From the IMG/VR virus record IMGVR_UViG_2671180577_000029: a stretch of 23,771 nucleotides of DNA; one strand, 5' to 3'. The notes under the pieces were generated by a model. It saw nothing but the letters and a program-made list of their open reading frames with translations. It ran no database searches and had not been told where the DNA came from. Source of the DNA: a virus. Lineage: Duplodnaviria > Heunggongvirae > Uroviricota > Caudoviricetes. This document shows positions 1-20,538 of this stretch, one piece after another; position 1 is the stretch's first letter, and every line of letters starts with the position of its first letter. A program made the translations under genes and the position numbers.

Positions 1-153
1 GTCAATACCAGTGGAACAGGCGGGCATACTTACGCCAGTATTAATATATTCATCAGACCAGCCCGTATACTCAGATGTTTCAGCATCATAATAAAAACAA
101 CGCATATCGCCCGGCACTGTAGCCAGCCCATTTTCATCAAAAACAGGTTTCAT
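1..153 (-). CDS. Tail fiber assembly protein, N-terminal 51 codons only (gene continues past window start)
   Basis: ATG at 153..151 overlaps the H stop codon (TAATG). Frame is open to position 1 and translates MKPVFDENGLATVPGDMRCFYYDAETSEYTGWSDEYINTGVSMPACSTGID. It lies immediately downstream of the tail fiber gene, as G follows H in P2. Confidence 0.6.
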   Translation of the reverse strand, partial: MKPVFDENGLATVPGDMRCFYYDAETSEYTGWSDEYINTGVSMPACSTGID

Positions 154-1436
154 TATTTAGCCCTCACCAGAAAGTTAAATGCAATATTTCGCGGTCTGAC
201 AGCAACAAAATTCACACCATCACCCACAGAGTTACTGGTGAAATTAAATCGTGAAAATCCTGGCTGATTTCCGGCGATGCCATCATGAAAGTTAATTGCG
301 TGTCCCGCACCTCCGCCTATATTCCCGGCAAACTGAGAAAAGTTTGTAGCTGCCTGCCAGCTTAATAATTCGCGACCACCATCTGCACCTCGCCCGTCAT
401 CCCAGATACGAATGAAATCACCGCGGGCCTCAGGTAATACCAGCGAAGGAAACACTTTCGCCAGCACAGGGTAATCAGTGGCAGAGAATTTCGCGCCGTT
501 GAACTTCAAAAACACCATACTGGACCAGCTGTCGATTACAGTATTTGGCATTGCAGCGGACGGCCAGAAGAACGGAACGCCAATAGCTGGAGAACCTTCT
601 CCCAAACCAAGGTATGCGAGAAGACCGGCAACATCCTTTCCACTCAAATGAGTCAGCGTATTGTCCAGCGGTTGTTTACCTGCCAGCGCATTGTTAATGG
701 TGGTGCTGAATTTCGGGTCATTGTTAATGGCTGCGGCAATTTCTTTCAGTGTGTCCAGCGTGGCAGGCGCACCATTAATCAGAGCGGTAATAGCAGCCTG
801 TACAAACGCAGTGGTCGCAATCCGCGTGGTGTTATTTCCTGCATCAGGAGTCGGCGCTTTTGGTTCTCCGGTAAATGTCGGATTATGTTTCTGTGCATAC
901 TGGGTATGAGGATCCTGTGCGGCAATGTGGTTTCTCATCTGGTCATCCACATACAGCCTTAATTCCAGGACTTCATCATCCACGTATTTACGGGTCGCCA
1001 GTACCACCGACGGGTCGATTTTCAGCGTAATAGCTTCGGTATTCGTGACAACCAGAATCATGCGGATAGTCTGGGTACGACCGCTGCCTTCCTGTAACTG
1101 CGGTTTGTACGTTTCCGGGCAGTTCGCCACCGCAATGAGTACGCCTTCATCATCATAAAGCCCAATCTCACGGATCCAGAATCCACCCTCGTTCTCAGGG
1201 ATGATTTGCTCCGCAATAATCTGGCTCTGGTTGTTCGGGTCAACACTCAGAAGATTCAGCGGCGCGATGCGTTTCTGGTTAATCAGTTTTGTCTGTGCCG
1301 GGTCTGGTGTCGGCAAGACACCATTCGCATCACCAACGGCCATTTGCGTCAGATTCAGCTTACTGCCAAGCATCGTCGCGTTAGCCAGCCGTGCTGCGCC
1401 CTGATTAGTCAGAATGGCGTAGTATTTCACTGTCAT
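153..1436 (-). CDS. H: Tail fiber protein (P2 gpH-like), distal duplicated copy, Ala at residue 362
   Basis: 427-aa ORF. N-terminal region (MAVGD...GGFW.RE.GLYDD.G.LIAVAN..E.YKP...EGSGR) matches the conserved P2 gpH N-terminal domain; the C-terminal part is divergent, as expected for a receptor-binding region. Confidence 0.85.
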   Translation of the reverse strand: MTVKYYAILTNQGAARLANATMLGSKLNLTQMAVGDANGVLPTPDPAQTKLINQKRIAPLNLLSVDPNNQSQIIAEQIIPENEGGFWIREIGLYDDEGVLIAVANCPETYKPQLQEGSGRTQTIRMILVVTNTEAITLKIDPSVVLATRKYVDDEVLELRLYVDDQMRNHIAAQDPHTQYAQKHNPTFTGEPKAPTPDAGNNTTRIATTAFVQAAITALINGAPATLDTLKEIAAAINNDPKFSTTINNALAGKQPLDNTLTHLSGKDVAGLLAYLGLGEGSPAIGVPFFWPSAAMPNTVIDSWSSMVFLKFNGAKFSATDYPVLAKVFPSLVLPEARGDFIRIWDDGRGADGGRELLSWQAATNFSQFAGNIGGGAGHAINFHDGIAGNQPGFSRFNFTSNSVGDGVNFVAVRPRNIAFNFLVRAK

Positions 1437-2044
1437 GCGTTTACTCTCAGGTTATCAATTAAATGAATGGCCGAGGCCGGGAAATAATCCCCTCCGACAA
1501 TAATGGCCTCCGGGGTGTAGGGATAAACTGTCAGGGCGTCGCCGTGATAGCATCCCGCACCGGCAAAAATGTTGCCGGTTGTACTTAAACTGATAGCCAG
1601 TCCCGTCAGATGGCGGCTTGCCGGTTTTGCATCAGCAACGAGGCGCTCCAGCTCCTGATACATTTCCTCGGTAATACCCTGCTCAAGCACGCCAACAACG
1701 ATACGGAACGTCCCCGGCTCCTCATTGAGTTGCCACCACTCCCTCACCTCAATCAGATAGCCGAGCGGCTCCACCACACGCCGGATTGCGCCTATAGTGC
1801 CCTTATGGCAGTGAATGAAATACGCATCGCGGATAACAGCGCGTTTTGTCGCTTCCGCCCACTTATCATCCCAGCGGTCAACCGAAAATGACCACGCCAG
1901 CCACGGCAGCAGATTTGCCGGGCAGGTGTCCGGGTTCCACAGCTCACGAATACTGACCGGCGTTTTTTCAATTTCCGCACAGGCTTTTGCAGCAGCGACT
2001 TCAAGCGGTGATGAGCCGGTCGGCAGCAGGCGCAAATCACTCAT
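1433..2044 (-). CDS. I: Baseplate assembly protein I (P2 gpI-like), distal duplicated copy
   Basis: 203-aa ORF beginning MSDLRLLPTGSSPLEVAAAKAC, identical to the copy at 3945..4556; 4-nt overlap with H start. Confidence 0.85.
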   Translation of the reverse strand: MSDLRLLPTGSSPLEVAAAKACAEIEKTPVSIRELWNPDTCPANLLPWLAWSFSVDRWDDKWAEATKRAVIRDAYFIHCHKGTIGAIRRVVEPLGYLIEVREWWQLNEEPGTFRIVVGVLEQGITEEMYQELERLVADAKPASRHLTGLAISLSTTGNIFAGAGCYHGDALTVYPYTPEAIIVGGDYFPASAIHLIDNLRVNA

Positions 2045-2594
2045 CCGAGCCTCCGGTCACGACGCGGTATTCGGTACAGAAAGACGCCTGCGTACTGTTG
2101 AGCACGATGTCGACCAGTGGTGAAGCCAGTTCAACACGCTGCACGCCTTCCACATGCAAAGCGGCATAAATGGCAGACAGACGGATGTCACGCCCCAGCC
2201 GGTGCTGTGCCGTGATGTACGCTTCCAGTTTTTTCACGGCGGCAGCGCGTATGGGTTCGCTTTCGGGACCAGGGTAAAGGTAAAGCGTGGCGTTTATCTG
2301 GTATTCAACAATGGCGGCAGACTGCACGGTCACGCGGTCGGCCACCGGTCTGACGTCCTCGCCATTAAGGGCGTTACGCACCACGGCCAGCAGGTCTTCG
2401 GATGCGACACCATTATTTTCACGTGACAGCACAGAGATGGTGACGCAGGCCGGAGACGGACTGGTGACAGAAATATCGGCGACACGCCCGTCGGCACTGC
2501 GACCATGATACTGATAGGCTCCCACCGACCCGGCGACGCTTAAGCCCTCAAACGCCTGCTGAATACGCAGCCGATAATCGGTGTCAGATTCCAT
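2037..2594 (-). pseudogene. Truncated baseplate J fragment (C-terminal 185 residues of gpJ) created by the duplication junction
   Basis: Identical to residues 118-302 of the full J at 4549..5457. Upstream frame runs into the junction and hits a stop inside duplicated tfa sequence; no Shine-Dalgarno before the internal ATG at 2594. Confidence 0.7.
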
Positions 2595-2664
2595 TACTGC
2601 CGGTGTCGGCGGGATGGTTGAATCATCTGCCGAGCCAGCCCATTTTCATCAAAAACAGGTTTCA

Positions 2665-3948
2665 TTATTTAGCCCTCACCAGAAAGTTAAATGCAATATT
2701 TCGCGGTCTGACAGCAACAAAATTCACACCATCACCCACAGAGTTACTGGTGAAATTAAATCGTGAAAATCCTGGCTGATTTCCGGCGATGCCATCATGA
2801 AAGTTAATTGCGTGTCCCGCACCTCCGCCTATATTCCCGGCAAACTGAGAAAAGTTTGTAGCTTCCTGCCAGCTTAATAATTCGCGACCACCGTCTGCAC
2901 CTCGCCCGTCATCCCAGATACGAATGAAATCACCGCGGGCTTCAGGTAATACCAGCGAAGGAAATACTTTCGCCAGCACAGGATAATCAGTGGCAGAGAA
3001 TTTCGCGCCGTTGAACTTCAAAAACACCATACTGGACCAGCTGTCGATTACAGTATTTGGCATTGCAGCGGACGGCCAGAAGAACGGAACGCCAATAGCT
3101 GGAGAACCTTCTCCCAAACCAAGGTATGCGAGAAGACCGGCAACATCCTTTCCACTCAAATGAGTCAGCGTATTGTCCAGCGGTTGTTTACCTGCCAGCG
3201 CATTGTTAATGGTGGTGCTGAATTTCGGGTCATTGTTAATGGCTGCGGCAATTTCTTTCAGTGTGTCCAGCGTGGCAGGCGCACCATTAATCAGAGCGGT
3301 AATAGCAGCCTGTACAAACGCAGTGGTCGCAATCCGCGTGGTGTTATTTCCTGCATCAGGAGTCGGCGCTTTTGGTTCTCCGGTAAATGTCGGATTATGT
3401 TTCTGTGCATACTGGGTATGAGGATCCTGTGCGGCAATGTGGTTTCTCATCTGGTCATCCACATACAGCCTTAATTCCAGGACTTCATCATCCACGTATT
3501 TACGGGTCGCCAGTACCACCGACGGGTCGATTTTCAGCGTAATAGCTTCGGTATTCGTGACAACCAGAATCATGCGGATAGTCTGGGTACGACCGCTGCC
3601 TTCCTGTAACTGCGGTTTGTACGTTTCCGGGCAGTTCGCCACCGCAATGAGTACGCCTTCATCATCATAAAGCCCAATCTCACGGATCCAGAATCCACCC
3701 TCGTTCTCAGGGATGATTTGCTCCGCAATAATCTGGCTCTGGTTGTTCGGGTCAACACTCAGAAGATTCAGCGGCGCGATGCGTTTCTGGTTAATCAGTT
3801 TTGTCTGTGCCGGGTCTGGTGTCGGCAAGACACCATTCGCATCACCAACGGCCATTTGCGTCAGATTCAGCTTACTGCCAAGCATCGTCGCGTTAGCCAG
3901 CCGTGCTGCGCCCTGATTAGTCAGAATGGCGTAGTATTTCACTGTCAT
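2665..3948 (-). CDS. H: Tail fiber protein (P2 gpH-like), proximal copy, Glu at residue 362
   Basis: 427-aa ORF identical to 153..1436 except Glu instead of Ala at residue 362 (codon 2865..2863 GAA versus GCA). Confidence 0.85.
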   Translation of the reverse strand: MTVKYYAILTNQGAARLANATMLGSKLNLTQMAVGDANGVLPTPDPAQTKLINQKRIAPLNLLSVDPNNQSQIIAEQIIPENEGGFWIREIGLYDDEGVLIAVANCPETYKPQLQEGSGRTQTIRMILVVTNTEAITLKIDPSVVLATRKYVDDEVLELRLYVDDQMRNHIAAQDPHTQYAQKHNPTFTGEPKAPTPDAGNNTTRIATTAFVQAAITALINGAPATLDTLKEIAAAINNDPKFSTTINNALAGKQPLDNTLTHLSGKDVAGLLAYLGLGEGSPAIGVPFFWPSAAMPNTVIDSWSSMVFLKFNGAKFSATDYPVLAKVFPSLVLPEARGDFIRIWDDGRGADGGRELLSWQEATNFSQFAGNIGGGAGHAINFHDGIAGNQPGFSRFNFTSNSVGDGVNFVAVRPRNIAFNFLVRAK

Positions 3949-4556
3949 GCGTTTACTCTCAGGTTATCAATTAAATGAATGGCCGAGGCCGGGAAATAAT
4001 CCCCTCCGACAATAATGGCCTCCGGGGTGTAGGGATAAACTGTCAGGGCGTCGCCGTGATAGCATCCCGCACCGGCAAAAATGTTGCCGGTTGTACTTAA
4101 ACTGATAGCCAGTCCCGTCAGATGGCGGCTTGCCGGTTTTGCATCAGCAACGAGGCGCTCCAGCTCCTGATACATTTCCTCGGTAATACCCTGCTCAAGC
4201 ACGCCAACAACGATACGGAACGTCCCCGGCTCCTCATTGAGTTGCCACCACTCCCTCACCTCAATCAGATAGCCGAGCGGCTCCACCACACGCCGGATTG
4301 CGCCTATAGTGCCCTTATGGCAGTGAATGAAATACGCATCGCGGATAACAGCGCGTTTTGTCGCTTCCGCCCACTTATCATCCCAGCGGTCAACCGAAAA
4401 TGACCACGCCAGCCACGGCAGCAGATTTGCCGGGCAGGTGTCCGGGTTCCACAGCTCACGAATACTGACCGGCGTTTTTTCAATTTCCGCACAGGCTTTT
4501 GCAGCAGCGACTTCAAGCGGTGATGAGCCGGTCGGCAGCAGGCGCAAATCACTCAT
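3945..4556 (-). CDS. I: Baseplate assembly protein I (P2 gpI-like)
   Basis: 203-aa ORF with N-terminus MSDLRLLPTGSSPLEVAAAKAC; lies between J and H as in P2. Confidence 0.9.
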   Translation of the reverse strand: MSDLRLLPTGSSPLEVAAAKACAEIEKTPVSIRELWNPDTCPANLLPWLAWSFSVDRWDDKWAEATKRAVIRDAYFIHCHKGTIGAIRRVVEPLGYLIEVREWWQLNEEPGTFRIVVGVLEQGITEEMYQELERLVADAKPASRHLTGLAISLSTTGNIFAGAGCYHGDALTVYPYTPEAIIVGGDYFPASAIHLIDNLRVNA

Positions 4557-5457
4557 CCGAGCCTCCGGTCACGACGCGGTATTCGGTACAGAAAGACGCC
4601 TGCGTACTGTTGAGCACGATGTCGACCAGTGGTGAAGCCAGTTCAACACGCTGCACGCCTTCCACATGCAAAGCGGCATAAATGGCAGACAGACGGATGT
4701 CACGCCCCAGCCGGTGCTGTGCCGTGATGTACGCTTCCAGTTTTTTCACGGCGGCAGCGCGTATGGGTTCGCTTTCGGGACCAGGGTAAAGGTAAAGCGT
4801 GGCGTTTATCTGGTATTCAACAATGGCGGCAGACTGCACGGTCACGCGGTCGGCCACCGGTCTGACGTCCTCGCCATTAAGGGCGTTACGCACCACGGCC
4901 AGCAGGTCTTCGGATGCGACACCATTATTTTCACGTGACAGCACAGAGATGGTGACGCAGGCCGGAGACGGACTGGTGACAGAAATATCGGCGACACGCC
5001 CGTCGGCACTGCGACCATGATACTGATAGGCTCCCACCGACCCGGCGACGCTTAAGCCCTCAAACGCCTGCTGAATACGCAGCCGATAATCGGTGTCAGA
5101 TTCCATTACTGCCGGTGTCGGCGGGATGGTTGAATCATCTGCCGGGGTGATAATCAGGCGTGTGGTGTTGTAATTGGCACCAATCACATCAAGGTCATTA
5201 CCGGCTGCACAGGCCAGCATCACCGCCCGTGCAGCCTCATTCACACGCTGACGCCAGATAAGCTCACGATAAGCATTTTCCTCCAGCAGTTTGACGAGAG
5301 GCTCAGATTCCAGTGTCAGGGTACGGGCGACCGCCTCCTGCTGGTCTTCCGGGTAAAGGGAAATCAGTGTCGCCTTGCGTTCGGCAAGAATGGTTTCAAA
5401 GTCCAGCTCCTCGACCACATCCGGTGCGGGTAGCTGGTTCAGGTCGATAATCGGCAT
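4549..5457 (-). CDS. J: Baseplate assembly protein J (P2 gpJ-like)
   Basis: 302-aa ORF, the same length as P2 gpJ; follows W and precedes I. Confidence 0.9.
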   Translation of the reverse strand: MPIIDLNQLPAPDVVEELDFETILAERKATLISLYPEDQQEAVARTLTLESEPLVKLLEENAYRELIWRQRVNEAARAVMLACAAGNDLDVIGANYNTTRLIITPADDSTIPPTPAVMESDTDYRLRIQQAFEGLSVAGSVGAYQYHGRSADGRVADISVTSPSPACVTISVLSRENNGVASEDLLAVVRNALNGEDVRPVADRVTVQSAAIVEYQINATLYLYPGPESEPIRAAAVKKLEAYITAQHRLGRDIRLSAIYAALHVEGVQRVELASPLVDIVLNSTQASFCTEYRVVTGGSDE

Positions 5458-5461
5458 GGTT

Positions 5462-5809
5462 TCAACTCACAGGGATGGTTAACGAAAGTGGCTGGCCGGT
5501 GTCGTTGTGCTGGCCGGTTAACGTGACCGTCATTCGCCCGTCAAAACTGCGCGCCGTGGTGACGGATGACAGGGTGACGCGGGGTTCCCATTTCAGCACT
5601 GCCATGTAACAGGCGACTTTAATCTGCAACTCAAGCGCCGGGGTCTGCGGCTGGTCAATCATTGACGCCAGCAACGAGCCGTAATCACGACGCATCACCC
5701 GTGAGCCGACCGGTGTGCGCAGGATATCGCCGATACTCTGGCTGATATGCTCAAGGTCAGTGACAGTCAGGCCATCACTGCGATTCATTCCGAGATAACG
5801 CGCTGTCAT
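5462..5809 (-). CDS. W: Baseplate assembly protein W (gp25/GPW family)
   Basis: 115-aa ORF, same length as P2 gpW; ATGA overlap with V stop. Confidence 0.9.
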   Translation of the reverse strand: MTARYLGMNRSDGLTVTDLEHISQSIGDILRTPVGSRVMRRDYGSLLASMIDQPQTPALELQIKVACYMAVLKWEPRVTLSSVTTARSFDGRMTVTLTGQHNDTGQPLSLTIPVS

Positions 5810-6441
5810 AGAGGTCCCCCTGTTGTGCCGCCACTGTCGCCGGGGTGTTTATGGGTATGCAGTACCTTACCGTTTGATGAGAGTTCACCGCCGGTGTGTT
5901 CAATGTTGCCGCGCATCGTCCCGCCCTTCTGCACTTCCAGCGTGCCGGTAATCAGCCTGTTGGTGCAGACCACCTCCGGTGTGTCCAGGGTGACGCGGGT
6001 TGATGCTTTCACCATGACCACCGGCACCGTGGCAGTAACAGAATCAGAAGCCGTCACGCTGGCCGTTTTAATTCCGCTTACCGTGAGTGCACTGGTTTCG
6101 GGTTCATACTCAATCACCGCCCCGTCAGGGAAACGGATATGCAGGGCATCCGCCGACGCAGACGGCGCGGGGTTATCGCCGGAATAAATCCCCGGCAGAA
6201 CAAACGCCGTGTCAAGTTCACCGCCCACGGCCAGAATCAGCACCTGCTCCCCCACGGAAGGTGCCCACCATGTGCGCGAACGACCGGCACGACAGGTCAG
6301 CCACTGAAGCCAGTCGGTGCACATGCCACCGGTCTGCACACGGCAGCGACCGGCTTTAAGGTTGGTTTCGACGACAAGGCCGGTGCGAATCATGTTGCGC
6401 AGTGCGCGCGCGAGTTCCTGGATATTTGCGAGAGTGTTCAT
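5806..6441 (-). CDS. V: Baseplate spike protein V (P2 gpV-like)
   Basis: 211-aa ORF (P2 gpV is 211 aa), beginning MNTLANIQELARALRNMIRTGLVVE. Confidence 0.9.
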   Translation of the reverse strand: MNTLANIQELARALRNMIRTGLVVETNLKAGRCRVQTGGMCTDWLQWLTCRAGRSRTWWAPSVGEQVLILAVGGELDTAFVLPGIYSGDNPAPSASADALHIRFPDGAVIEYEPETSALTVSGIKTASVTASDSVTATVPVVMVKASTRVTLDTPEVVCTNRLITGTLEVQKGGTMRGNIEHTGGELSSNGKVLHTHKHPGDSGGTTGGPL

Positions 6442-6453
6442 AACGGGAAGGAT

Positions 6454-6475
6454 GCCGCCGGGTCATACCGGCGGC
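6454..6475 (-). promoter_or_regulatory. GC-rich hairpin (8-bp stem GCCGCCGG/CCGGCGGC, 6-nt loop) in the S-V intergenic region
   Basis: Perfect inverted repeat read directly from the sequence, 15 nt upstream of the V ATG and downstream of the S stop. Could be a terminator for the O-to-S operon or a 5' UTR structure for V; a TGT-N10-ACA dyad lies just upstream at 6491..6506. Confidence 0.35.
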
Positions 6476-6507
6476 AATGTAACGATGAGGTGTCGGGAAT
6501 GGCACAA

Positions 6508-6960
6508 CTAACGGTCGAGGTGAGCCAGGATAATCTCTTCAATCATCTGCACATCCTCACCGGTAAAGCCGAGCAGAGGACGCACCGGATAATCAATTTT
6601 CTTACCGTCTTTCCGGTTTTCTTCCGACAGACCAAACTGATGCACACTGGCGATTTTCGGTGACTTCCCGCCGTAAAACTCCATTGATGCCTGTTCAGGG
6701 CTGGCGCGGATATGCAAAAAACGACTGGTGATAAGTTTCGCAAACATTTTTCGCTTAACACGACCGGTCTTTTTTCTGGCGCTCTGCTGCTGGCGTGGCG
6801 CGTAGGGTGTGCCGTCCGGGGCTTTCTGTGCCATCACCCGACGCTGCTGACTCTGCCGCAGACGTTTCGCCAGTTCGGCACTCAGTCGCCGACGCCCTGA
6901 CGGTGACAGCGACTCAATCAGTCCGGTCAGCCGGTCTTCAAAACGCTTAAACTCATTCAT
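6508..6960 (-). CDS. S: Tail completion protein S (P2 gpS-like)
   Basis: 150-aa ORF, same length as P2 gpS, beginning MNEFKRFEDRLTGLIESL. Confidence 0.9.
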   Translation of the reverse strand: MNEFKRFEDRLTGLIESLSPSGRRRLSAELAKRLRQSQQRRVMAQKAPDGTPYAPRQQQSARKKTGRVKRKMFAKLITSRFLHIRASPEQASMEFYGGKSPKIASVHQFGLSEENRKDGKKIDYPVRPLLGFTGEDVQMIEEIILAHLDR

Positions 6961-7420
6961 CCCACTTGCTCACCAGTTCGCCATTGATATAAAGCTCCAT
7001 CGGGCGGGTGACCGGCTCCGGCGGCGTGGGTTCCGGGATATTCTTCACATGCAGCGCGCCGTCCACCTCACTGACCAGCGTGCGCTCGGTCAGCATCAGG
7101 CTGATGCTGATATCAAAGCTGCTGTCATTGTTGATGTCTGCATAAAACGTGAAGCCCTTTTTCTGGCCTTCGTCAGTGGTCATGATGTCGGGCTGATTTT
7201 CCCGCAGCCACGCCAGCACCGGCACGATGAGCAGGTCAAAATCACCGGTAAAGTCGGTCACAATGACATTGAGCGTGTAACGCTTTTCAAATGACAGCGA
7301 CGTCGCCAGTGTGGAGGCAATACTCCCGTTATCCACGAATATCCGCAGCATCTCGGGACTGGTTTTCAGCACCGTGACGGCATCAGTCAGCGCCCTGCGC
7401 AGGCTGTCGGGTTTGAGCAT
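6953..7420 (-). CDS. R: Tail completion protein R (P2 gpR-like)
   Basis: 155-aa ORF, same length as P2 gpR, beginning MLKPDSLRRALTDAVTVLKT. Confidence 0.9.
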   Translation of the reverse strand: MLKPDSLRRALTDAVTVLKTSPEMLRIFVDNGSIASTLATSLSFEKRYTLNVIVTDFTGDFDLLIVPVLAWLRENQPDIMTTDEGQKKGFTFYADINNDSSFDISISLMLTERTLVSEVDGALHVKNIPEPTPPEPVTRPMELYINGELVSKWDE

Positions 7421-8380: not shown

Positions 8381-8878
8381 TTAAGCCGGTACGCCGCCGG
8401 CGGTACGCCAGACGGTGACCAGTTTTTCCAGTGAATGCTCACGCTGACCGTAACCGGCACCCGGCAGGGACGCCCAGATATTGCGACAGCGTGAAATGGC
8501 GCGCTCAATGCGTCCCGCCCGGATGTCATCCAGCGCACCGCGTTCGCGGATCAACTGAATGGCGAGTCTGTCCTGTGACAACGGACTGAAATCCGGCAGG
8601 GCAAGCTGTTTGCGGTAATGCGGCCAGAACAGGTAAAGCTGCTGATAGCGACCGGAGGCCGTGGATTTTTCACCGCGACGGTTAAACACCTTCGCCGGTC
8701 GACCATGTGCGAACGGGTGGTCACTGTAGTCGGTGAAGATTTCCGGCTTTCCATCCAGTCCGGTGACTATCACGTCATAGCCCCGGTTTTTCGTCAGCGG
8801 ATGGTTCGCCGTCCCTTCGGACACGGCCAGCATGTCGAGAAAGGCGGCGATATTCTGATGCGTGTTAATTACCGGCAT
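8381..8878 (-). CDS. K: Endolysin (P2 gpK-like lysozyme)
   Basis: 165-aa ORF beginning MPVINTHQNIAAFLDMLAVSEGT; same length and position as P2 K. Confidence 0.9.
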   Translation of the reverse strand: MPVINTHQNIAAFLDMLAVSEGTANHPLTKNRGYDVIVTGLDGKPEIFTDYSDHPFAHGRPAKVFNRRGEKSTASGRYQQLYLFWPHYRKQLALPDFSPLSQDRLAIQLIRERGALDDIRAGRIERAISRCRNIWASLPGAGYGQREHSLEKLVTVWRTAGGVPA

Positions 8879-9159
8879 TACGGTTTCCCCCTGCCCTTAA
8901 AGCGGCGCTGAATGGCAATCTCAATCACCTGATAACCGGCGATACCCAGCATGGAGCCGATGCCGCACACCGCAGGCAGTGACAGGTCAGGAAACTGCAC
9001 CAGAACAACACCGGCAACCATCGAGACAAAACCACCGAGCAACATGCGCCCGATAAACAGACGCGGGGTGATGGGTTCACCACCGGCAAGCACCTTGCCG
9101 ACAACAATCAGCACCCCAATCATGAAAAGCGACAGGACGCTTTTTTCTTCTGCTGTCAT
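8878..9159 (-). CDS. Y: Holin (P2 gpY-like)
   Basis: 93-aa ORF with transmembrane segments and a charged C-terminus (RRFKGRGKP); P2 Y position and length. Confidence 0.9.
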   Translation of the reverse strand: MTAEEKSVLSLFMIGVLIVVGKVLAGGEPITPRLFIGRMLLGGFVSMVAGVVLVQFPDLSLPAVCGIGSMLGIAGYQVIEIAIQRRFKGRGKP

Positions 9160-9162
9160 GCG

Positions 9163-9366
9163 TTACTCCCACAGATTGACAGTTTCAGCCACGGGCGCGG
9201 TCTGAACGTCGGGCAGTTCGACGGCGGTGCCGTGTGGCAGCACCGCACCCAGTTCAGCCAGTCCCGGATTTGCGGCGAGCACGGTCTCAACCACGCCCTC
9301 AGTGCGCCCGTAATACCGGACACAAATGGCGTCGAGCGTGTCGCCCTGTAGCGCAAAGGTCTTCAT
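9163..9366 (-). CDS. X: Tail protein X (P2 gpX-like)
   Basis: Start set at the internal ATG 9366..9364 (MKTFALQGDTLDAICVRYYG), giving 67 aa as in P2 gpX; the ORF-track start at 9435 would overlap L. Confidence 0.85.
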   Translation of the reverse strand: MKTFALQGDTLDAICVRYYGRTEGVVETVLAANPGLAELGAVLPHGTAVELPDVQTAPVAETVNLWE

Positions 9367-12708: not shown

Positions 12709-12881
12709 TGTCAGGAGTCCTGAATAGTGATTAGAGGAGTCACATGTCGGCATCAGTTTCCCGACGATACGCATCCTCCGCCATCAGTCCCGGATGGCTT
12801 ATCACTGACACAACAGCACCTTAGCGAATCGCGGGGCGCGACTCAGTAGCCTTGCCGTGTATTCATCACGGCGAGGTATTC
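12709..12881. promoter_or_regulatory. Divergent late-promoter region between O (minus) and P (plus)
   Basis: 173-bp non-coding spacer between divergently oriented operons, as for the P2 late promoters PO and PP. I could not find a canonical TGT-N12-ACA activator dyad here, so elements are not mapped. Confidence 0.4.
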
Positions 12882-14654
12882 ATGACCATCACCACAGACA
12901 CCACTCTTTTACACGACCCGCGTCGTCAGGCGGCGCTGCTGTACTGGCAGGGGTTTTCCGTGCCGCAGATTGCCGCCATGTTGCAGATGAAACGCCCGAC
13001 GGTGCAGAGCTGGAAACAGCGCGACGGCTGGGACAGCGTTGCCCCCATCAGCCGTGTCGAAATGAGTCTGGAAGCGCGGCTGACCCAGCTCATCATCAAA
13101 CCGCAGAAAACCGGCGGTGACTTCAAGGAAATTGACCTGCTAGGACGCCAGATTGAACGACTGGCACGGGTCAACCGCTACAGTCAGACCGGCAACGAGG
13201 CAGACCTTAATCCGAACGTCGCTAACCGCAACAAAGGCGGGCGTCGCAAACCGAAAAAGAATTTTTTCAGTGACGAGGCCATCGAAAAGCTGGAGCAGAT
13301 TTTCTTTGAGCAGTCTTTCGACTATCAGTTGCACTGGTATCGCGCCGGGCTTGAGCACCGCATCCGCGATATCCTGAAATCCCGCCAGATTGGCGCAACG
13401 TTTTATTTTTCCCGCGAGGCGCTGCTGCGCGCCCTGAAAACCGGCCATAACCAGATTTTTCTGTCGGCCAGTAAAACGCAGGCGTATGTGTTCCGTGAAT
13501 ACATCATCGCCTTTGCCCGGCTGGTTGACGTTGACCTGACCGGTGACCCGATTGTCCTGGGCAATAACGGCGCAAAACTGATTTTTCTCGGCACCAACTC
13601 CAACACCGCACAGAGCCATAACGGCGACCTGTACGTCGACGAGATTTTCTGGATCCCGAATTTTCAGGTACTGCGTAAGGTGGCATCAGGTATGGCCTCA
13701 CAGAGTCACCTGCGTTCGACCTATTTCTCCACCCCGTCCACGCTGGCGCACGACGCCTACCCGTTCTGGTCGGGTGAACTGTTTAACCGGGGACGCGCCA
13801 GCGCCGCCGAACGCGTGGAAATCGACGTCAGTCATAACGCCCTTGCCGGTGGACTTCTCTGTGCGGACGGCCAGTGGCGGCAGATTGTCACCATTGAGGA
13901 CGCCCTGAAAGGCGGCTGCACGCTGTTCGACATTGAGCAGCTCAAACGCGAAAACAGCGCCGACGATTTTAAAAACCTGTTCATGTGTGAATTTGTTGAC
14001 GACAAGGCGTCGGTGTTCCCGTTCGAGGAGCTGCAACGCTGCATGGTCGACACGCTGGAAGAATGGGAAGACTATGCGCCGTTTGCCGCGAATCCGTTCG
14101 GCTCCCGCCCGGTATGGATTGGTTACGACCCGTCACACCGTGGCGACAGCGCCGGATGCGTGGTACTGGCACCGCCGGTGGTGGCCGGTGGCAAATTCAG
14201 AATACTTGAGCGTCACCAGTGGAAAGGCATGGACTTTGCCACTCAGGCTGAATCCATCCGCAAACTCACCGAGAAATACAACGTCGAATACATCGGTATT
14301 GATGCCACCGGCCTCGGTGTCGGCGTGTTCCAGCTCGTGCGCTCGTTCTATCCCGCCGCACGCGACATCCGCTACACGCCGGAAATGAAAACCGCAATGG
14401 TGCTCAAGGCCAAAGACGTTATCCGCCGTGGCTGTCTGGAATATGACGTCAGCGCCACCGACATCACCAGCTCGTTTATGGCTATCCGCAAGACCATGAC
14501 CAGCAGCGGACGCAGTGCCACCTATGAGGCCAGCCGCAGCGAGGAAGCCAGCCACGCCGACCTCGCCTGGGCGACCATGCACGCCCTGTTAAATGAGCCA
14601 CTCACCGCCGGTATCAGCACCCCGCTGACATCCACCATTCTGGAGTTTTACTGA
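12882..14654 (+). CDS. P: Terminase ATPase (large) subunit P
   Basis: Start set at ATG 12882 (MTITTDTTLLHDPRRQAALLY) with GAGG 5 nt upstream, giving 590 aa as in P2 gpP. Confidence 0.92.
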   Translation: MTITTDTTLLHDPRRQAALLYWQGFSVPQIAAMLQMKRPTVQSWKQRDGWDSVAPISRVEMSLEARLTQLIIKPQKTGGDFKEIDLLGRQIERLARVNRYSQTGNEADLNPNVANRNKGGRRKPKKNFFSDEAIEKLEQIFFEQSFDYQLHWYRAGLEHRIRDILKSRQIGATFYFSREALLRALKTGHNQIFLSASKTQAYVFREYIIAFARLVDVDLTGDPIVLGNNGAKLIFLGTNSNTAQSHNGDLYVDEIFWIPNFQVLRKVASGMASQSHLRSTYFSTPSTLAHDAYPFWSGELFNRGRASAAERVEIDVSHNALAGGLLCADGQWRQIVTIEDALKGGCTLFDIEQLKRENSADDFKNLFMCEFVDDKASVFPFEELQRCMVDTLEEWEDYAPFAANPFGSRPVWIGYDPSHRGDSAGCVVLAPPVVAGGKFRILERHQWKGMDFATQAESIRKLTEKYNVEYIGIDATGLGVGVFQLVRSFYPAARDIRYTPEMKTAMVLKAKDVIRRGCLEYDVSATDITSSFMAIRKTMTSSGRSATYEASRSEEASHADLAWATMHALLNEPLTAGISTPLTSTILEFY

Positions 14655-15688
14655 TGAGCAAGAAAAAAGGGAAAACACCGCAACCTGCGGCAAAAAAAAT
14701 GACCGCCAGCGCCCCGAAAATGGAAGCATTCACCTTTGGTGAGCCGGTGCCGGTACTCGACCGCCGTGACATTCTGGATTACGTCGAGTGCATCAGTAAC
14801 GGCAGATGGTATGAGCCACCGGTCAGCTTTACTGGTCTGGCAAAAAGCCTGCGTGCTGCCGTGCATCACAGCTCACCAATTTACGTCAAACGCAATATTC
14901 TGGCCTCGACATTTATCCCGCATCCGTGGCTTTCTCAGCAGGATTTCAGCCGCTTTGTGCTGGATTTTCTGGTGTTCGGTAATGCGTTTCTGGAAAAGCG
15001 TTACAGCACTACCGGTAAGGTCATCAGACTGGAAACCTCACCGGCAAAATATACCCGCCGTGGGGTGGAGGAGGATGTTTACTGGTGGGTGCCGTCCTTC
15101 AACGAGCCGACACCTTTCACGCCCGGCTCCGTGTTTCACCTGCTGGAGCCGGATATTAATCAGGAGCTGTACGGCCTGCCGGAATATCTCAGCGCCCTTA
15201 ACTCTGCCTGGCTGAATGAGTCGGCCACGCTGTTCCGCCGCAAGTATTACGAAAACGGCGCACATGCCGGATACATCATGTACGTCACTGATGCCGTGCA
15301 GGATCGCAACGATATCGAAATGCTTCGCGAAAACATGGTTAAGTCGAAAGGCCGCAATAACTTTAAAAATCTGTTTCTCTATGCCCCACAGGGGAAAGCC
15401 GACGGCATTAAAATTATCCCGCTCAGTGAAGTGGCAACGAAGGACGATTTTTTTAATATCAAAAAAGCCAGCGCCGCTGACCTGCTGGACGCGCACCGCA
15501 TCCCCTTTCAGTTGATGGGGGGCAAGCCGGAGAACGTCGGGTCGCTGGGTGATATTGAGAAAGTGGCAAAGGTCTTTGTCCGCAATGAGCTTATCCCGTT
15601 ACAGGACAGGATCCGCGAGATAAACGGCTGGCTCGGTCAGGAGGTCATCCGCTTTAAAAACTACTCACTGGACACTGACAACGGCTGA
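14654..15688 (+). CDS. Q: Portal protein Q
   Basis: 344-aa ORF, same length as P2 gpQ; start overlaps the P stop (TGATG). Confidence 0.92.
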   Translation: MSKKKGKTPQPAAKKMTASAPKMEAFTFGEPVPVLDRRDILDYVECISNGRWYEPPVSFTGLAKSLRAAVHHSSPIYVKRNILASTFIPHPWLSQQDFSRFVLDFLVFGNAFLEKRYSTTGKVIRLETSPAKYTRRGVEEDVYWWVPSFNEPTPFTPGSVFHLLEPDINQELYGLPEYLSALNSAWLNESATLFRRKYYENGAHAGYIMYVTDAVQDRNDIEMLRENMVKSKGRNNFKNLFLYAPQGKADGIKIIPLSEVATKDDFFNIKKASAADLLDAHRIPFQLMGGKPENVGSLGDIEKVAKVFVRNELIPLQDRIREINGWLGQEVIRFKNYSLDTDNG

Positions 15689-15693
15689 ACATC

Positions 15694-15715
15694 GCCGCCT
15701 GCGGGCGGCTTTTTT
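15694..15715 (+). terminator. Rho-independent terminator after Q
   Basis: GCCGCC-tgcg-GGCGGC hairpin (15694..15709) followed by a run of six T (15710..15715). Confidence 0.7.
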
Positions 15716-15857
15716 ACAACCCGCCATCACGCCCTCACACGCTCACCACCGCACAAAACAGCCCGCAGACACACCAACGCCCCGGCTAACAATCTAAACG
15801 CCATCACGACGCGCTCAGACGCTGAAAAAATAAAATCAGCACCACCGCCAGCGCGCA

Positions 15858-15876
15858 GTGCTTTCCCCGCCTCGCC
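15858..15876. other. cos cohesive-end site (19 nt)
   Basis: Plus strand reads GTGCTTTCCCCGCCTCGCC, the reverse complement of the P2 19-nt cohesive end GGCGAGGCGGGGAAAGCAC (recalled from the literature, not looked up); it lies about 170 bp past Q, as at the P2 left end. Confidence 0.8.
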
Positions 15877-16037
15877 CGCCCGCTTCATGGGGTGTTTTTA
15901 ATGCAGGTGCAATACCGCTTTTGAGCCACGCCCGTTCTGGCGGACGCACGGCCGGAACATGCAACTCCGGCACATGCAAAACCATGCACATATTGCACGC
16001 AGAAAGATAAATGCCAAAATACCTAAATCAACTTCCA

Positions 16038-17876
16038 TTAATCAGTCAGATAAGGTTCAACTTTATCTTCCCATACACTAAATAAAGGCAAACAAGTTAA
16101 ATAAAAGATAAAGACACAGGCAAAAACTGAAGTTGGTTGATAACAATGATTTACAGTATACCTGCCATGAGCCATCGTGTGTCTAATTGCAGCACCACCT
16201 TTCATATTGAACAATAAATCCATAGTCAATACATGATCACTCCCCAAAATACCTTCCATTTCACTCTTATAATTTGCAAGCATTTGAGATAGACTAGTAG
16301 CCTCCTCAAAAAGTGACACATCTATTTTCGTTGTTTCTTTTCTTCTTAATTCTAAAATCCATCTAATTGAATTCTCCAACTGCGGCAACAACAAATAACA
16401 GGCAGACACATAATCCCCCTGCCAAAGCTTAAGAAATCCTAAAGAAAATATTTCCGCATACCCAGGAGGAACAAATAGACTTTGTTGTGAGATTGGGTCA
16501 AATGTATTCTCATTTAATGAATACCTAGACAACACTCTTTGCCTAACAACTTCAAACTCACCATAAACATAAAACTGATGCTCAATATTACTAGTTCTTA
16601 AATAATTTACACAGGCATCATCTAGACTTATATCCCCAGCAGAATCTAAAGGTGGTTGCCTTGCCACAACGCGTCCTCTGTCATCATAAAAAACCGTATC
16701 ACTCACATTAACAAAAAAATATCTCTTAGCATCAGAGCGAGCTCTTTCCATAATCTCACTGGCACTTACAACCTTAAATCTAGAGATTAATTTTTTAATT
16801 ATTTCTGAGAAATTTAATTGATTATAAATATGCTCTTTCTGAGCGATAACATCACTAAGATCCATTGGTATTGCAAAGGAATACATTTCATCATTGATTT
16901 GATCTCGAATAGAATTTAATTCCTCTTTAATCTCTTTAATCCTTTCACTCATTCCACCAATCGCTCTAAATTCCCCAAGAGCAACTCTTAGCCAATGAGC
17001 CTTCAATGTTGGAGATGAAGACTGTTCAAATTGAGCCAATGTTATTTCTGTCGCTTTCATTTTGCACCTTCTTCCTTGCTCTTCCATATCATTTTTAACA
17101 TATAATTCAGACGCAAAATAAAACAATTTTTTCACAGCATCAAAATAAGAAGCTCCACAATGCTCATCAGCTATCTTTTCTGCATTCTTAGCCAATTGTA
17201 AGGGGCACAATAAATTATTCTTATAAAGAATTTCAGAAATTCTTAAAACACCGATAAATATACTAGAATCTATTAATATATGATATAGCCTTAACGTCGA
17301 GTCAACTATCCCTCCTTGCAGTTGTTTTTTCCTGCCAATAAGCATGCGCGATATTGTAATACCTCTATCCAAGCAGTCAACAACATCAAAAACATGGATG
17401 TCACCTGATTCCTTTTTTTCTAACAAAGTATCACAAGCATCATTAATCATTAGAGCATATGACTCTATTGCTTTATTAGCAGAATCTATATCCTTACGGT
17501 TATTTATCCATAAAACATCACACACCCTAGATATAATATAAGGGTTATCAGTATTTTCTTTAATACAAGTTAATATGGTTAAATAATTATCCTTGTAATC
17601 TGAAGGTCTATAACCTCGCTTAGGATAGAGAATGATTTTAGACTCAAAGTCGATAATATCACCAGACTTAGAAAATTTTAAACTAAATAACGAACGTAAT
17701 AAATAGCAAACCCTCCAAGAACTCACATCTTTTTTTTGCTTATAAAATGACAACAACTGAAAAAAATAAGATTCCATTTCAAAATAAGAATGGCTTCTTG
17801 GTGGTAACAATATACTGGCGTACTCACTTTTTTTAAAATCATCAACTGAAATAGAAAAAACATCGAACTCGCTCAT
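16038..17876 (-). CDS. Hypothetical 612-aa cargo protein of unknown family in the tin/old accessory locus; candidate defense or lysogenic-conversion protein
   Basis: Long intact ORF with strongly AT-rich composition (about 30% GC in sampled 60-nt stretches) against GC-rich phage flanks. AAAGGTGAGGA precedes the ATG. No Walker A motif seen. C-terminal RHTMAH (R565-H570) resembles a HEPN Rx4-6H motif, but this is weak evidence. Confidence 0.75.
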   Translation of the reverse strand: MSEFDVFSISVDDFKKSEYASILLPPRSHSYFEMESYFFQLLSFYKQKKDVSSWRVCYLLRSLFSLKFSKSGDIIDFESKIILYPKRGYRPSDYKDNYLTILTCIKENTDNPYIISRVCDVLWINNRKDIDSANKAIESYALMINDACDTLLEKKESGDIHVFDVVDCLDRGITISRMLIGRKKQLQGGIVDSTLRLYHILIDSSIFIGVLRISEILYKNNLLCPLQLAKNAEKIADEHCGASYFDAVKKLFYFASELYVKNDMEEQGRRCKMKATEITLAQFEQSSSPTLKAHWLRVALGEFRAIGGMSERIKEIKEELNSIRDQINDEMYSFAIPMDLSDVIAQKEHIYNQLNFSEIIKKLISRFKVVSASEIMERARSDAKRYFFVNVSDTVFYDDRGRVVARQPPLDSAGDISLDDACVNYLRTSNIEHQFYVYGEFEVVRQRVLSRYSLNENTFDPISQQSLFVPPGYAEIFSLGFLKLWQGDYVSACYLLLPQLENSIRWILELRRKETTKIDVSLFEEATSLSQMLANYKSEMEGILGSDHVLTMDLLFNMKGGAAIRHTMAHGRYTVNHCYQPTSVFACVFIFYLTCLPLFSVWEDKVEPYLTD

Positions 17877-17988
17877 TCCTCACCTTTAAAGCACTTAACA
17901 AACAACCATGGCAAACAATACCAAACTGCAAGTAACAACTAAATATATACAGTACGAAACTATCTAAGATCTCGTGAATTTTTGCCAT
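17842..17988 (-). CDS. Possible small hydrophobic ORF (48 aa) between A and the cargo gene
   Basis: ATG 17988..17986 overlaps the A stop (TAATG). Translation MAKIHEILDSFVLYIFSCYLQFGIVCHGCLLSALKVRNERVRCFFYFS contains one hydrophobic stretch. It overlaps the cargo gene start by 35 nt, and its ATG sits inside a candidate -10 element, so it may not be a real gene. Confidence 0.2.
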   Translation of the reverse strand: MAKIHEILDSFVLYIFSCYLQFGIVCHGCLLSALKVRNERVRCFFYFS

Positions 17989-18014
17989 TATATCCACTCC
18001 ATTACCGTTGAGAA
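17987..18014 (-). promoter_or_regulatory. Candidate sigma70 promoter for the cargo gene
   Basis: Minus strand reads TTCTCA (18014..18009), a 16-nt spacer, then TATAAT (17992..17987, a perfect -10) overlapping the A stop codon. Predicted start near 17980 would give a roughly 100-nt leader to the ATG at 17876. Confidence 0.35.
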
Positions 18015-20273
18015 TCCCGGCCACTCATCAGCGACCGGATACGTGAATTTTTTCCCGTCATAATTTACGGTCGCGCCACGCGCCAGCGCCTCAAGCTCCC
18101 ATCGCTGCGGCCTGATACCGTTCTGAGCAAGGTCAACACGGATACGGGTGATTTGCATTCGTTCCGACCGGGTCAGTCTGGCCGATGGCGCTATTTCATG
18201 CTGTTTTAACGGGCTTCCGTTTCTTTGCTGACGATTAGGTGTTCTCAGGCCGTGTTTTAATGCGCCCCTGAGCGCCCTCACGACCTCCGGCTCATTCCAT
18301 TCGATAACTCCGTCATCAACCAGATTAAGCACTGCTGCGGCGTGCTCAGAAGGTGTGGGAGCCGGTAACGAAGTATCACCACCGGTGAGCATTCCACAGT
18401 TATTGACAGGACTCCGAGGCGCGGCGATGCCGCTTTTTAAAGTCAAAGGCTCAACGACCGGCACTTTCGGAACAATGCGCCAGTCCGTCGTTCTGGTGAT
18501 ATGAATATGACGCGCGCCGAGATGCGGCGCGTAAATGCCGACCACTCTCTCGACTTCTTCCTCGTACTCGTTAACTTCATCCGACGGACTACGGGCGACC
18601 CTGACAGTCTGACAATCGCGCGGGACATTTGCCCCACCCTGCGCACTGATATACAACGCAAAATCGCCACTGTCTGCGGCAGCGCGTGCAGCCTCGACGC
18701 GTTCGTCAAACTCATCAGCAATGCTGACGCCGCGAGGCAATTTGCGTAGTTCACGGTAAGCCCCCATTGTCGGCAGACCAACCGTTTTAAATTGCGGGAT
18801 GCGCCACGTTGACGCCCATGCAGTAACAGCCGCGGCAGTATCTTTCAGAGGTCTGCCGGTATCGTTATCGAGCTGACCATCCAGTGCATAGCCGTCGATG
18901 TTTTTTGAGATGTATTTCGCGATATACCCCGCAGCACCGCCCCGATTAAGGTGTTTTGCCTGAAAACGGTTTCGCGCGGCTCCTCTTTCGTCGCCATCCT
19001 CTTTGAGCGCATAGCGACGCATGATTTCGATAATCTGGTTACGCTGGCGCGGATTACAAAAAAGCATCATATGCCAGTGCGGCGTTCCGTCGTGGTGTGG
19101 CTCGACGACACGCAAACCGTAGACCTGTAAATCATTATCCTTGAATGCCGTGCGCATCAGGCTCCAGATACGGCAGAGATAACGCTGCGCATCCTTTGGA
19201 TTAAATGCCTCATCGTTCCAGCCGTGATTTAGCTGGACGGTTTTACTTTCGCCTTTTCCAACCTGACGTGTCGGGTGATACTTTGACGGCGCGGTCAGCG
19301 TGATAAACATCCCCACATCACCCTCTGCTGCGGCGTAACGCTCAATACCGGCAATGGTGTTCATCAGCTCCATCCGGCGAATTTCAGGATTAGAAATACT
19401 GCCCATCACCTTACTGATAAGGTCGATGCGCTCGCCGGTTTCCCTGTTTTCGAGATCACACGATTTAAGAAATTCCAGATTTGCCTGGCGGCGTGCACGC
19501 ACATCACGAATGGCATGTTTACTGGCATAAGGAGAACGGTCTTTATTGACCTCCCCGACAGCAATCAGTAACGCCTCATGCCAGCGCATACGCTGGCCTT
19601 TAAGCTGACTAATCCACCACTCATCGTTAAACAGACGGGCAATGGCAGAATATGCCTGCCTCGTGGTCATCTGCCCTTTACGGTATTTTTTCCAGTAGAG
19701 AGGGGAAATATTGAAAGCTCGTGCAGCGCCAGCAACATGACCATACAGGTGAGCCTGTGCCTCATCCGTAAACAGCGATTCTTTCTCGCCATGCGCATCC
19801 ACCCAGGCATCGCAGAGTTCCTCATACATCATGAAAAGCTGCGATGAGATACGGGCGGCAAACTTTTTCAGCTCCTTGTCATTCATCCCCGGCAGACGCG
19901 CATAATGGTCACGCTCTGCCAGAAACAGCAACGACGCGTCGGTGTTCATTTCATGGCGCTGATTCACACGCTCAATGCGCGGCCATAAACGACGCTGAAA
20001 AGTGGATGTGAGAAAATAAAACCCGTGCACCGGGCTTTTATTGCGCCGGATGTAGTCATAGCGTGAAGTAAACAGCGAGCGCAAAAAGTAAGGCAGGCGG
20101 TTAATCGTGGATAAAACACCTTGCACCTGACGCATCTCGTCACGTGTAAGGGGTCTTTCGCGCCCGACGGCCTCGCGTGGCGCGTTCCATGCATAAGCAC
20201 CGGTAAACGCCTTACCGGTGCCTGCGGCAAATGCTGACGGAGGGACAAAACGCCCGGAGGCTTTAACGGCCAT
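17988..20273 (-). CDS. A: Replication initiation protein A (rolling-circle initiator)
   Basis: Start set at ATG 20273..20271 (MAVKASGRFVPPSAFAAGTGK), giving 761 aa as in P2 gpA; the longer ORF-track start at 20315 is a TTG and would overlap the upstream gene. Confidence 0.92.
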   Translation of the reverse strand: MAVKASGRFVPPSAFAAGTGKAFTGAYAWNAPREAVGRERPLTRDEMRQVQGVLSTINRLPYFLRSLFTSRYDYIRRNKSPVHGFYFLTSTFQRRLWPRIERVNQRHEMNTDASLLFLAERDHYARLPGMNDKELKKFAARISSQLFMMYEELCDAWVDAHGEKESLFTDEAQAHLYGHVAGAARAFNISPLYWKKYRKGQMTTRQAYSAIARLFNDEWWISQLKGQRMRWHEALLIAVGEVNKDRSPYASKHAIRDVRARRQANLEFLKSCDLENRETGERIDLISKVMGSISNPEIRRMELMNTIAGIERYAAAEGDVGMFITLTAPSKYHPTRQVGKGESKTVQLNHGWNDEAFNPKDAQRYLCRIWSLMRTAFKDNDLQVYGLRVVEPHHDGTPHWHMMLFCNPRQRNQIIEIMRRYALKEDGDERGAARNRFQAKHLNRGGAAGYIAKYISKNIDGYALDGQLDNDTGRPLKDTAAAVTAWASTWRIPQFKTVGLPTMGAYRELRKLPRGVSIADEFDERVEAARAAADSGDFALYISAQGGANVPRDCQTVRVARSPSDEVNEYEEEVERVVGIYAPHLGARHIHITRTTDWRIVPKVPVVEPLTLKSGIAAPRSPVNNCGMLTGGDTSLPAPTPSEHAAAVLNLVDDGVIEWNEPEVVRALRGALKHGLRTPNRQQRNGSPLKQHEIAPSARLTRSERMQITRIRVDLAQNGIRPQRWELEALARGATVNYDGKKFTYPVADEWPGFSTVMEWI

Positions 20274-20538
20274 ATGAGCCAAAAGCCTCTGAACAACGCT
20301 TGCTGAGTTGCTCAACCTGCGCGTTTAAATCAGCAAAAGACTTTGCGCTTCCGGTCAGAATATCGTGATGCATCAGGCCGGAAACGAGCTGGCTTAATTT
20401 CGGGTAATAACCAACCACCGACAGCCATTCCTGACCGGCGTTTTTACCGCTTTCCGCTCTCTTTTTCTCGTGGAGAATAAACTGAAAGCTGTCACTGGTA
20501 ACGACATAACGTTCGCCAATTTCGATACGAATACTCAT
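20263..20538 (-). CDS. Hypothetical protein (P2 orf83 position)
   Basis: 91-aa ORF immediately upstream of A; ATGA overlap with the preceding ORF. Confidence 0.6.
   Translation of the reverse strand: MSIRIEIGERYVVTSDSFQFILHEKKRAESGKNAGQEWLSVVGYYPKLSQLVSGLMHHDILTGSAKSFADLNAQVEQLSKRCSEAFGSYGR

Follow-up and report, generated by a model that had tools for sequence, protein, structure and literature searches.

A 2512-bp segment of the late tail operon, carrying the 3′ part of J and all of I and H, together with 11 codons (33 nt) from the start of tfa, the tail-fibre assembly gene downstream of H, is present twice, head-to-tail, at one end of the DNA analysed here (the window: 23,771 nt of IMG/VR record IMGVR_UViG_2671180577_000029). 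We favour, at about even odds, a tandem duplication that arose very recently, in a single lineage, in a P2-like (Peduovirus-type) E. coli prophage. An assembly artefact is a serious possibility, held at rather less than evens: the strain would have a single-copy J-I-H-tfa module and an assembler, scaffolder or gap-closer would have written the segment twice at a contig end. Whichever applies, the event, a duplication or an assembly error, is an ordinary one.

Structure of the repeat and its junction

The direct repeat has an offset of 2512, copy 1 (2512 bp) lying at 121..2632 and copy 2 (2512 bp) at 2633..5144, abutting with no spacer. The two copies are 99.80% identical, with five mismatches over 2512 bp, so that an earlier note was right about the tandem arrangement, the offset and the missing spacer but not in calling the duplication exact. 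Chance does not account for 2.5 kb repeated at 99.8% identity, and the head-to-tail order with a single novel junction is the structure of a tandem duplication. The unit was previously described as the 3′ part of J with I and H; the inclusion of 11 tfa codons and the closeness of the contig end are two features that the description lacked.

At the novel junction (2632..2633) ...CATCTGCCG is joined bluntly to AGCCAGCCC..., the second base of J codon 105 meeting the end of tfa codon 11. No base of microhomology is shared on either side, as had been noted before. Neither the join nor the contig end carries Ns or junk, the letters of the window being A, C, G and T only, which counts against an artefact.

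We propose that the duplication arose in an illegitimate, homology-independent event that joined J codon 105 with tfa codon 11, probably between sister copies. Spontaneous tandem duplications occur in phage genomes (lambda, T4 rII) and in bacterial chromosomes, and P2 duplications were reportedly mapped by electron microscopy in the 1970s; a search of the open library for literature on tandem duplications of P2 yielded no relevant paper. The present structure resembles such cases in being a few-kb head-to-tail repeat with one novel join, in its expected instability through homologous recombination and in the limit that packaging capacity sets on its size. It differs from them in its location (J-I-H-tfa′ in the late tail operon), in its zero-homology junction, and in being known from one draft contig with no known selection or phenotype.

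Gene content of the duplicated module

The genes are those of a P2-like tail module, in the order V-W-J-I-H-assembly gene on one strand, with matches to the Pfam families Baseplate_J, Tail_P2_I, Phage_tail_fib N-terminal domain, GPW_gp25 and Phage_base_V. DNA identity to P2 and its relatives is 95-97%, and 96% for J against P2 itself. Where a module of this type has J, I and H once each, the window has two I, two H and 1.6 J, and the minus strand reads J - I - H(2) - 23-codon tfa′/′J peptide - ′J (185 aa) - I - H(1) - tfa. We located all of the reading frames of the two H genes, two I genes, complete J and J fragment that had been listed earlier for the minus strand.

In the order of transcription, the full-length baseplate gene J (4549..5457, minus strand, 302 aa) contains the right duplication boundary at 5144/5145, and is followed by I copy 2 (3945..4556, minus strand, 203 aa, the same as I copy 1) and by the tail-fibre gene H copy 2 (2665..3948, minus strand, 427 aa, A362E, annotated CTT46536.1). 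Across the junction lies a 23-codon ORF (2594..2665, minus strand) of 11 tfa codons joined out of frame to J sequence, encoding MKPVFDENGLARQMIQPSRRHRQ and then a stop, which overlaps the ATG of a truncated J in the sequence TAATG. The truncated J ORF (2037..2594, minus strand, 185 aa, annotated CTT46507.1) starts at internal Met118 of J and keeps only the middle and C-terminal domains of Baseplate_J; its product might be made through this TAATG stop-start coupling. The baseplate/tail gene I copy 1 (1433..2044, minus strand, 203 aa, PF09684) and H copy 1 (153..1436, minus strand, 427 aa, PF12571 N-terminal domain) come next; the protein of this H is found, identical, on at least 57 further contigs. 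Last is the 5′ part of tfa (1..153, minus strand, 51 codons, P2 G-like, with Caudo_TAP in relatives), whose start overlaps the H stop, again as TAATG, and which the contig end interrupts 2 nt past window position 1.

The genes, their order and their strand are thus those of the canonical P2 late tail operon V-W-J-I-H-G, from which the window differs in that H and the assembly gene are separated by an 11-codon stub of the latter, a truncated J and additional copies of I and H. The view of the earlier note that this J-I-H arrangement is foreign to the canonical P2 layout is borne out by complete E. coli genomes: the collapsed single-copy arrangement is found at one place in 513 of them, and the junction in none.

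In favour of a duplication, the ORFs downstream are all intact and the operon order is kept. The E308 prophage, a single-copy relative, measures about 29.7 kb from ogr to int and P2 measures 33,593 bp; an addition of 2.5 kb therefore stays below the P2 genome size and the genome would still be packageable. In function we expect nothing new: I and a near-identical H would be present in additional dose, and the array should be unstable, with RecA recombination returning it to one copy.

Source record and occurrence elsewhere

The window corresponds to NCBI contig CYAX01000039.1 of the draft WGS assembly GCA_001285865.1 of E. coli. A feature planted in silico was considered and rejected, as the NCBI record has the same structure with annotated proteins. 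This contig ends 122 nt from the start of the repeat, and agrees with a related sequence, L011, through its last base. We found nothing relevant in the literature on the assembly (searched by the CYAX01, CYDI01 and GCA accessions).

A 400-nt query across the junction had no match in 5,426 complete E. coli genomes or 50,697 phage records, nor did a junction 35-mer in IMG/VR, GTDB representative genomes or JGI metagenomes. The truncated J protein is likewise found on CYAX01000039.1 alone, and the H copy 2 protein has its only exact match there. In these collections, then, we found no independent occurrence or inheritance of the duplication, its junction-specific proteins being on one contig only. 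Repeat copy 1 and both flanks are identical to the single-copy prophage in E. coli E308, CYDI01000023.1 and ERZ1743135, and over 7.4 kb the collapsed sequence matches single-copy prophages of other assemblies at 100% identity, one of these apparently belonging to the same series of submissions. The duplication thus shows no divergence that would point to any age.

It is these observations that weigh against a duplication and for an artefact: a draft WGS contig as source, a junction with both of its junction-specific proteins unique to one record and missing from every collection searched, a repeat beginning 122 nt from the contig end, a contig break that is itself unexplained, and identical prophages in CYDI01000023.1 and ERZ1743135 that are single-copy. 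Contig-end duplication artefacts in drafts have the same signature, namely a single draft record, an adjacent contig end and a near-identical repeat that exceeds typical short-read inserts; unlike them, the repeat here has five natural-allele differences and a join that lies off any repeat boundary. Against a duplication, too, short-read assemblers usually collapse 2.5-kb repeats of 99.8% identity. The suggestion made earlier of an assembly artefact from a mixed population survives in part: the draft contig, the contig end and the identical single-copy prophages elsewhere strengthen the case for an artefact, but a mixed population alone would give no blunt head-to-tail junction.

A five-site patch in H

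All five mismatches between the copies (352/2864 G>T, 381/2893 A>G, 429/2941 C>T, 453/2965 C>T and 471/2983 G>A) fall within 120 nt in the variable C-terminal part of H; the probability of five random sites clustering so tightly is about 2.5e-5. The copy-1 patch (352..471) has alleles G, A, C, C and G, the type common to E308, L011 and L016, while the copy-2 patch (2864..2983) has T, G, T, T and A, the alleles of most other related prophages (5/5 in strain B2C, 4/5 in PigCaeca_1). Four of the copy-2 changes are synonymous and one is missense (A362E), leaving the H proteins different at one residue. Sequencing error is ruled out as the source of the mismatches, all five being known alleles and four synonymous.

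As the copy-2 bases are common natural alleles, they are neither sequencing errors nor the product of copy-paste, and suggest a short patch of recombination or of mis-threading; five clustered natural-allele differences, four of them synonymous, also mean that copy 2 is not a software copy of copy 1, and this non-identity argues against an artefact. Under a duplication, we suggest that a 120-300-bp patch of the common alternative allele of the H C-terminus, the invertible part, was either gained later by one copy or differed already between the two parental molecules. Under an artefact, the copy-2 bases would have been supplied by a minor subpopulation or by reads belonging to a paralogous tail-fibre variable segment at another genomic location. 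Possible donors exist, as E. coli genomes often have several matching tail-fibre/tfa loci (up to 6-7 per genome, and four in E308). We also considered the prophage's own alternative Hv cassette as donor and rejected it, since the E308 locus has no similar second copy. The copy-2 H haplotype has no second occurrence among about 15 billion proteins, and a chimeric assembly path crossing the bubble of a paralogue would make it equally unique.

Duplication endpoints and the contig break

Mis-joins in assembly graphs usually occur at repeat or mosaic boundaries, and the endpoints here are away from both. They lie off the population mosaic and paralogy boundaries, at arbitrary sites within conserved J and tfa: at the J endpoint the alignment continues without a break in 1505 of 1516 E. 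coli records, and at the tfa endpoint in the best-matching 25 E. coli records listed. We therefore rejected the idea that the endpoints are mosaic or paralogy breakpoints, which would have accounted for a graph mis-join or a homologous origin. De Bruijn assemblers have no junction k-mers beyond those in the reads and cannot create absent ones, so a k-mer graph assembler would need junction-spanning reads to make this join, a further point against an artefact.

It is also conceivable, at a low probability, that the junction is real and that the structure is more complex or subclonal, being present in part of the culture or coupled to a rearrangement or IS insertion in tfa that breaks the contig, in which case the assembled phasing of the five SNPs may be wrong. 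The contig stops at about tfa codon 51, where there is no common mosaic boundary, the common one being about 160 nt further on; something unusual may follow, and one relative, L015, has an IS insertion beside the module.

Crossover sites and the inversion system

A 26-bp cix/gix-like crossover site, TTCTCCCAAACCAAGGTATGCGAGAA, lies at 597..622 in H codons 272-280, at the border of the invertible variable part, and the duplication has added a second, directly repeated cix-like site at 3109..3134. The inverted partner site and a serine recombinase are seen in L011 (crossover sites 6815-6846 and 8555-8586, recombinase 8642-9235) and E308, in the region corresponding to that beyond the source contig end; since that contig stops within the segment, relatives alone show them.

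A site within the unit and a recombinase encoded in relatives could suggest that a Cin/Gin-type invertase, or P2 Int or terminase, made the duplication. We consider this very improbable, the junction sequence essentially refuting it. Serine invertases of the Hin/Gin/Cin family carry out exchange at identical core dinucleotides, but the endpoints (120/121 and 5144/5145) lie not at crossover sites but 476 nt and more than 2 kb from the cix-like sites, and share neither a 2-bp core nor other homology. An invertase-, Int- or cos-mediated origin was accordingly rejected, as the endpoints are at no such sites. The recombination intermediate proposed in the earlier note likewise finds no support, as the joined positions, codon 105 of J and codon 11 of tfa, are not cos, att or cix sites.

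Implications for tail-fibre diversity

That the duplication might yield virions with two fibre alleles had been suggested before, and is weakly supported at best: the H proteins differ by one residue (A362E), which barely supports such a reading, and the upstream H has no assembly gene of its own. A bolder proposal, which we regard as highly unlikely, is that a real, heritable duplication frees one copy of H from the inversion switch, so that virions or tailocin-like particles could carry two receptor specificities at once. Copy 2 would then express Hc-Hv1 constitutively, copy 1, beside the invertible segment, could flip to Hv2, and the locus would be a snapshot of multi-fibre phages arising from a single-fibre P2-type module.

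An artefact would make the record a caution and no more, with CTT46507.1 (truncated J) and CTT46536.1 (H A362E) as misassembly products. A real event would be a gene duplication caught in the act within a phage host-range module, and its illegitimate junction, short conversion tract and extra recombinase site would be raw material for fibre diversification; even so, the duplicate would be a lone one, almost unchanged, probably unstable and of no demonstrated phenotype.

Invertible tail-fibre cassettes are known from the Mu G segment, the P1 C segment, the e14 P segment and P2-like E. coli prophages (PMC4272514). The present module is like them in that H has a 26-bp cix/gix-like site, to which relatives add the inverted partner, alternative Hv/tfa cassettes and a serine recombinase. 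Whereas those systems diversify their fibres by inversion between inverted sites, the extra copy here lies in direct orientation, differs very little and has its boundaries away from the crossover sites.

Results and Discussion

Structure of the repeated tail module

In the window, two near-identical segments (121-2632 and 2633-5144) follow one another head to tail in the same orientation, offset by 2512 nt. Their junction (...CATCTGCCG/AGCCAGCCC...) has neither spacer nor microhomology, since the bases preceding 121 and 2633 are unlike, as are those following 2632 and 5144. The exact tandem duplication described in the earlier note is thus partly confirmed: the record does contain a repeat with a blunt join, yet its two copies differ at five positions, and the unit also includes a stub of tfa, the tail-fibre assembly gene.

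All genes across the repeat lie on the minus strand: full-length J (4549-5457, 302 aa); I and H of copy 2 (3945-4556, 203 aa; 2665-3948, 427 aa); a junction ORF (2594-2665, 23 codons); a truncated J (2037-2594, 185 aa); I and H of copy 1 (1433-2044, 203 aa; 153-1436, 427 aa); and the first 51 codons of tfa (1-153). Pfam matches are to Baseplate_J, Tail_P2_I and the tail-fibre N-terminal domain; of the J domains, the middle and C-terminal ones are all that the truncated J retains. The left endpoint lies immediately behind tfa codon 11 and the right one within J codon 105, at its second base, so the copy-2 tfa stub continues out of frame into J; the junction ORF product is MKPVFDENGLARQMIQPSRRHRQ, followed by a stop. 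This stop overlaps the codon of J internal Met118, which opens the 185-aa ORF, as TAATG (2594-2598). The same stop-start overlap is found at 151-155, where H is coupled to tfa. Recreated by chance at the border of the junction peptide and the truncated J, it could permit translational re-initiation on the J fragment, and we infer that the 185-aa ORF may be translated.

RefSeq (PGAP) splits the intact 427-aa H ORF into two partial pseudogene fragments in the related prophages E308, PigCaeca_1, HB-Coli0 and AST81; the ORF is at 20153-21436 of locus L001 and at 3033-4316 of L002, L003 and L004. The split looks more like a peculiarity of how a mosaic fibre gene is annotated than a true disruption.

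The single-copy form in other genomes

A search with 400 nt centred on the junction gave matches in 1,969 records of E. coli and 89 of phages; none covered at least 80% of the query, and all alignments among the matches listed ended at the junction. A junction-spanning 35-mer was not found in IMG/VR, GTDB representative genomes or JGI metagenomes. The 185-aa J fragment (CTT46507.1) and copy-2 H (CTT46536.1) are each on one public contig only, CYAX01000039.1 (GCA_001285865.1, Escherichia coli, 51,100 bp), and the biological reality of the duplication rests on this draft contig.

With one unit removed, the sequence (1-2632 plus 5145-7000) occurs in its entirety in 513 complete genomes. The E308 prophage matches it with 0 mismatches up to window position 6616 (99.4% identity over 21 kb), and two further assemblies, CYDI01000023.1 (GCA_001285245.1) and ENA ERZ1743135, have J-I-H-tfa once and match the collapsed window at 100% identity for 7,436 nt. 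The accession of GCA_001285245.1 suggests that it comes from the same submission series as the source assembly. Because of these full-length matches and identical single-copy assemblies, the single-copy haplotype with copy-1 alleles is the ancestral and common form. A contig of 30,095 bp, about one phage-genome length, from JGI metagenome 3300045988 (Ga0495776_030515) is 99.96% identical to window 12761-23771 and ends 174 nt beyond the integrase gene, which suggests wide circulation of the phage at roughly single-copy genome length.

A chimeric second copy

The five mismatches between copies (352/2864, 381/2893, 429/2941, 453/2965 and 471/2983) span at most 120 nt, a clustering with a random-site probability of ~2.5e-5. 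Copy 1 has the G, A, C, C, G of E308 and the related locus L011; copy 2 has T, G, T, T, A, as do most other related prophages: strain B2C at all five sites, PigCaeca_1 at four and the others at three or four. Four of the differences are synonymous third-position changes and the remaining one gives A362E. As natural alleles, mostly synonymous, they are not attributable to sequencing error, and a copied string as the source of copy 2 was likewise rejected; the pattern is that of a brief stretch of natural alleles, at least 120 nt and at most ~300 nt long. The exact copy-2 haplotype occurs in 0 complete genomes (best match 99.5%), and its H protein is unique among ~15 billion proteins, that of copy 1 being on at least 57 contigs. 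Copy 2 is thus a chimera of local background and a foreign patch, such as would arise if another tail-fibre locus donated the patch by gene conversion, or if an assembler threaded a paralogue variant into one repeat pass. With a single residue separating the two H proteins, one can for now hardly speak of two fibre alleles.

The H gene carries a 26-bp cix/gix-like crossover site (597-622, duplicated at 3109-3134); the patch sits downstream of it, in the variable C-terminal region. Invertible fibre loci are known in P2-like prophages of E. coli (PMC4272514). In relatives an inverted partner site lies 1.7 kb away, with tfa, a convergent second tfa and an alternative H C-terminus between the two, and a serine recombinase gene thereafter (in L011, sites 6815-6846 and 8555-8586, recombinase 8642-9235). 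The window has neither partner site nor recombinase because the source contig ends inside the invertible segment. An invertase origin of the duplication was rejected, since the endpoints lie away from the cix/gix-like sites and share no core. In the related prophage locus L015 (8642-10395) a transposase (rve family) is inserted directly after a shortened recombinase gene, and inversion of its fibre segment is probably no longer possible.

Real event or assembly artefact

We give a genuine, very recent tandem duplication about an even chance. Uninterrupted alignment runs through the J endpoint in 1505 of 1516 records and through the tfa endpoint in the 25 E. coli records listed as the best matches, so a paralogous-prophage graph would not branch there; both endpoints lie at arbitrary positions in uniformly conserved genes, which counts for a real event. 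So do the absence of Ns from the window, the distinguishable copies, the intact ORFs, and a length (~29.7 kb plus 2.5 kb) below P2's 33.6 kb.

An assembly artefact is a serious possibility, though somewhat short of even. Repeats of 2.5 kb with 99.8% identity are seldom resolved in short-read assembly, the duplication is known from a single draft record, and outside the five-nucleotide patch and the join there is no divergence from single-copy relatives. Window coordinates are those of CYAX01000039.1 minus 2 (window 1 is record position 3), so the repeat starts only 122 nt from the end of this draft WGS contig. That end falls inside tfa at codon ~51 (L011 7436-7440), agreement with relatives holding to the final base; the break does not coincide with the common tfa mosaic boundary, and the tfaE/yfdK-like block, which is widely shared, begins ~160 nt beyond. 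An IS insertion, a second rearrangement or low coverage are possible causes. It is improbable that a real junction lies inside a more complex or subclonal structure. The prophage is a very common one, and the repeat in it is either a structural variant of an ordinary sort or an error.

A genuine duplication would have originated by homology-independent illegitimate recombination between sister copies, the patch coming from a conversion tract or from parental molecules already different there, and RecA would later collapse it by recombining the 2.5-kb repeats. It would provide an extra I and H, possibly a truncated J, and a third cix site; the added site, being direct relative to the first, should mostly be ignored by an invertase demanding inverted sites.

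Other genes of the prophage and its relatives

Between the portal gene and replication gene A, in a variable slot of P2-like phages, lies a 612-aa minus-strand ORF (16038-17876) matching the PADLOC candidate defence family PDC-S39 (E = 6e-73) and Pfam DUF7380, and probably a prophage-borne anti-phage gene. In a related prophage (GCA_023520215.1, L012 1505-3407), a PycTM and nucleotide-cyclase gene pair resembling the Pycsar defence system is inserted between tail genes S and V.
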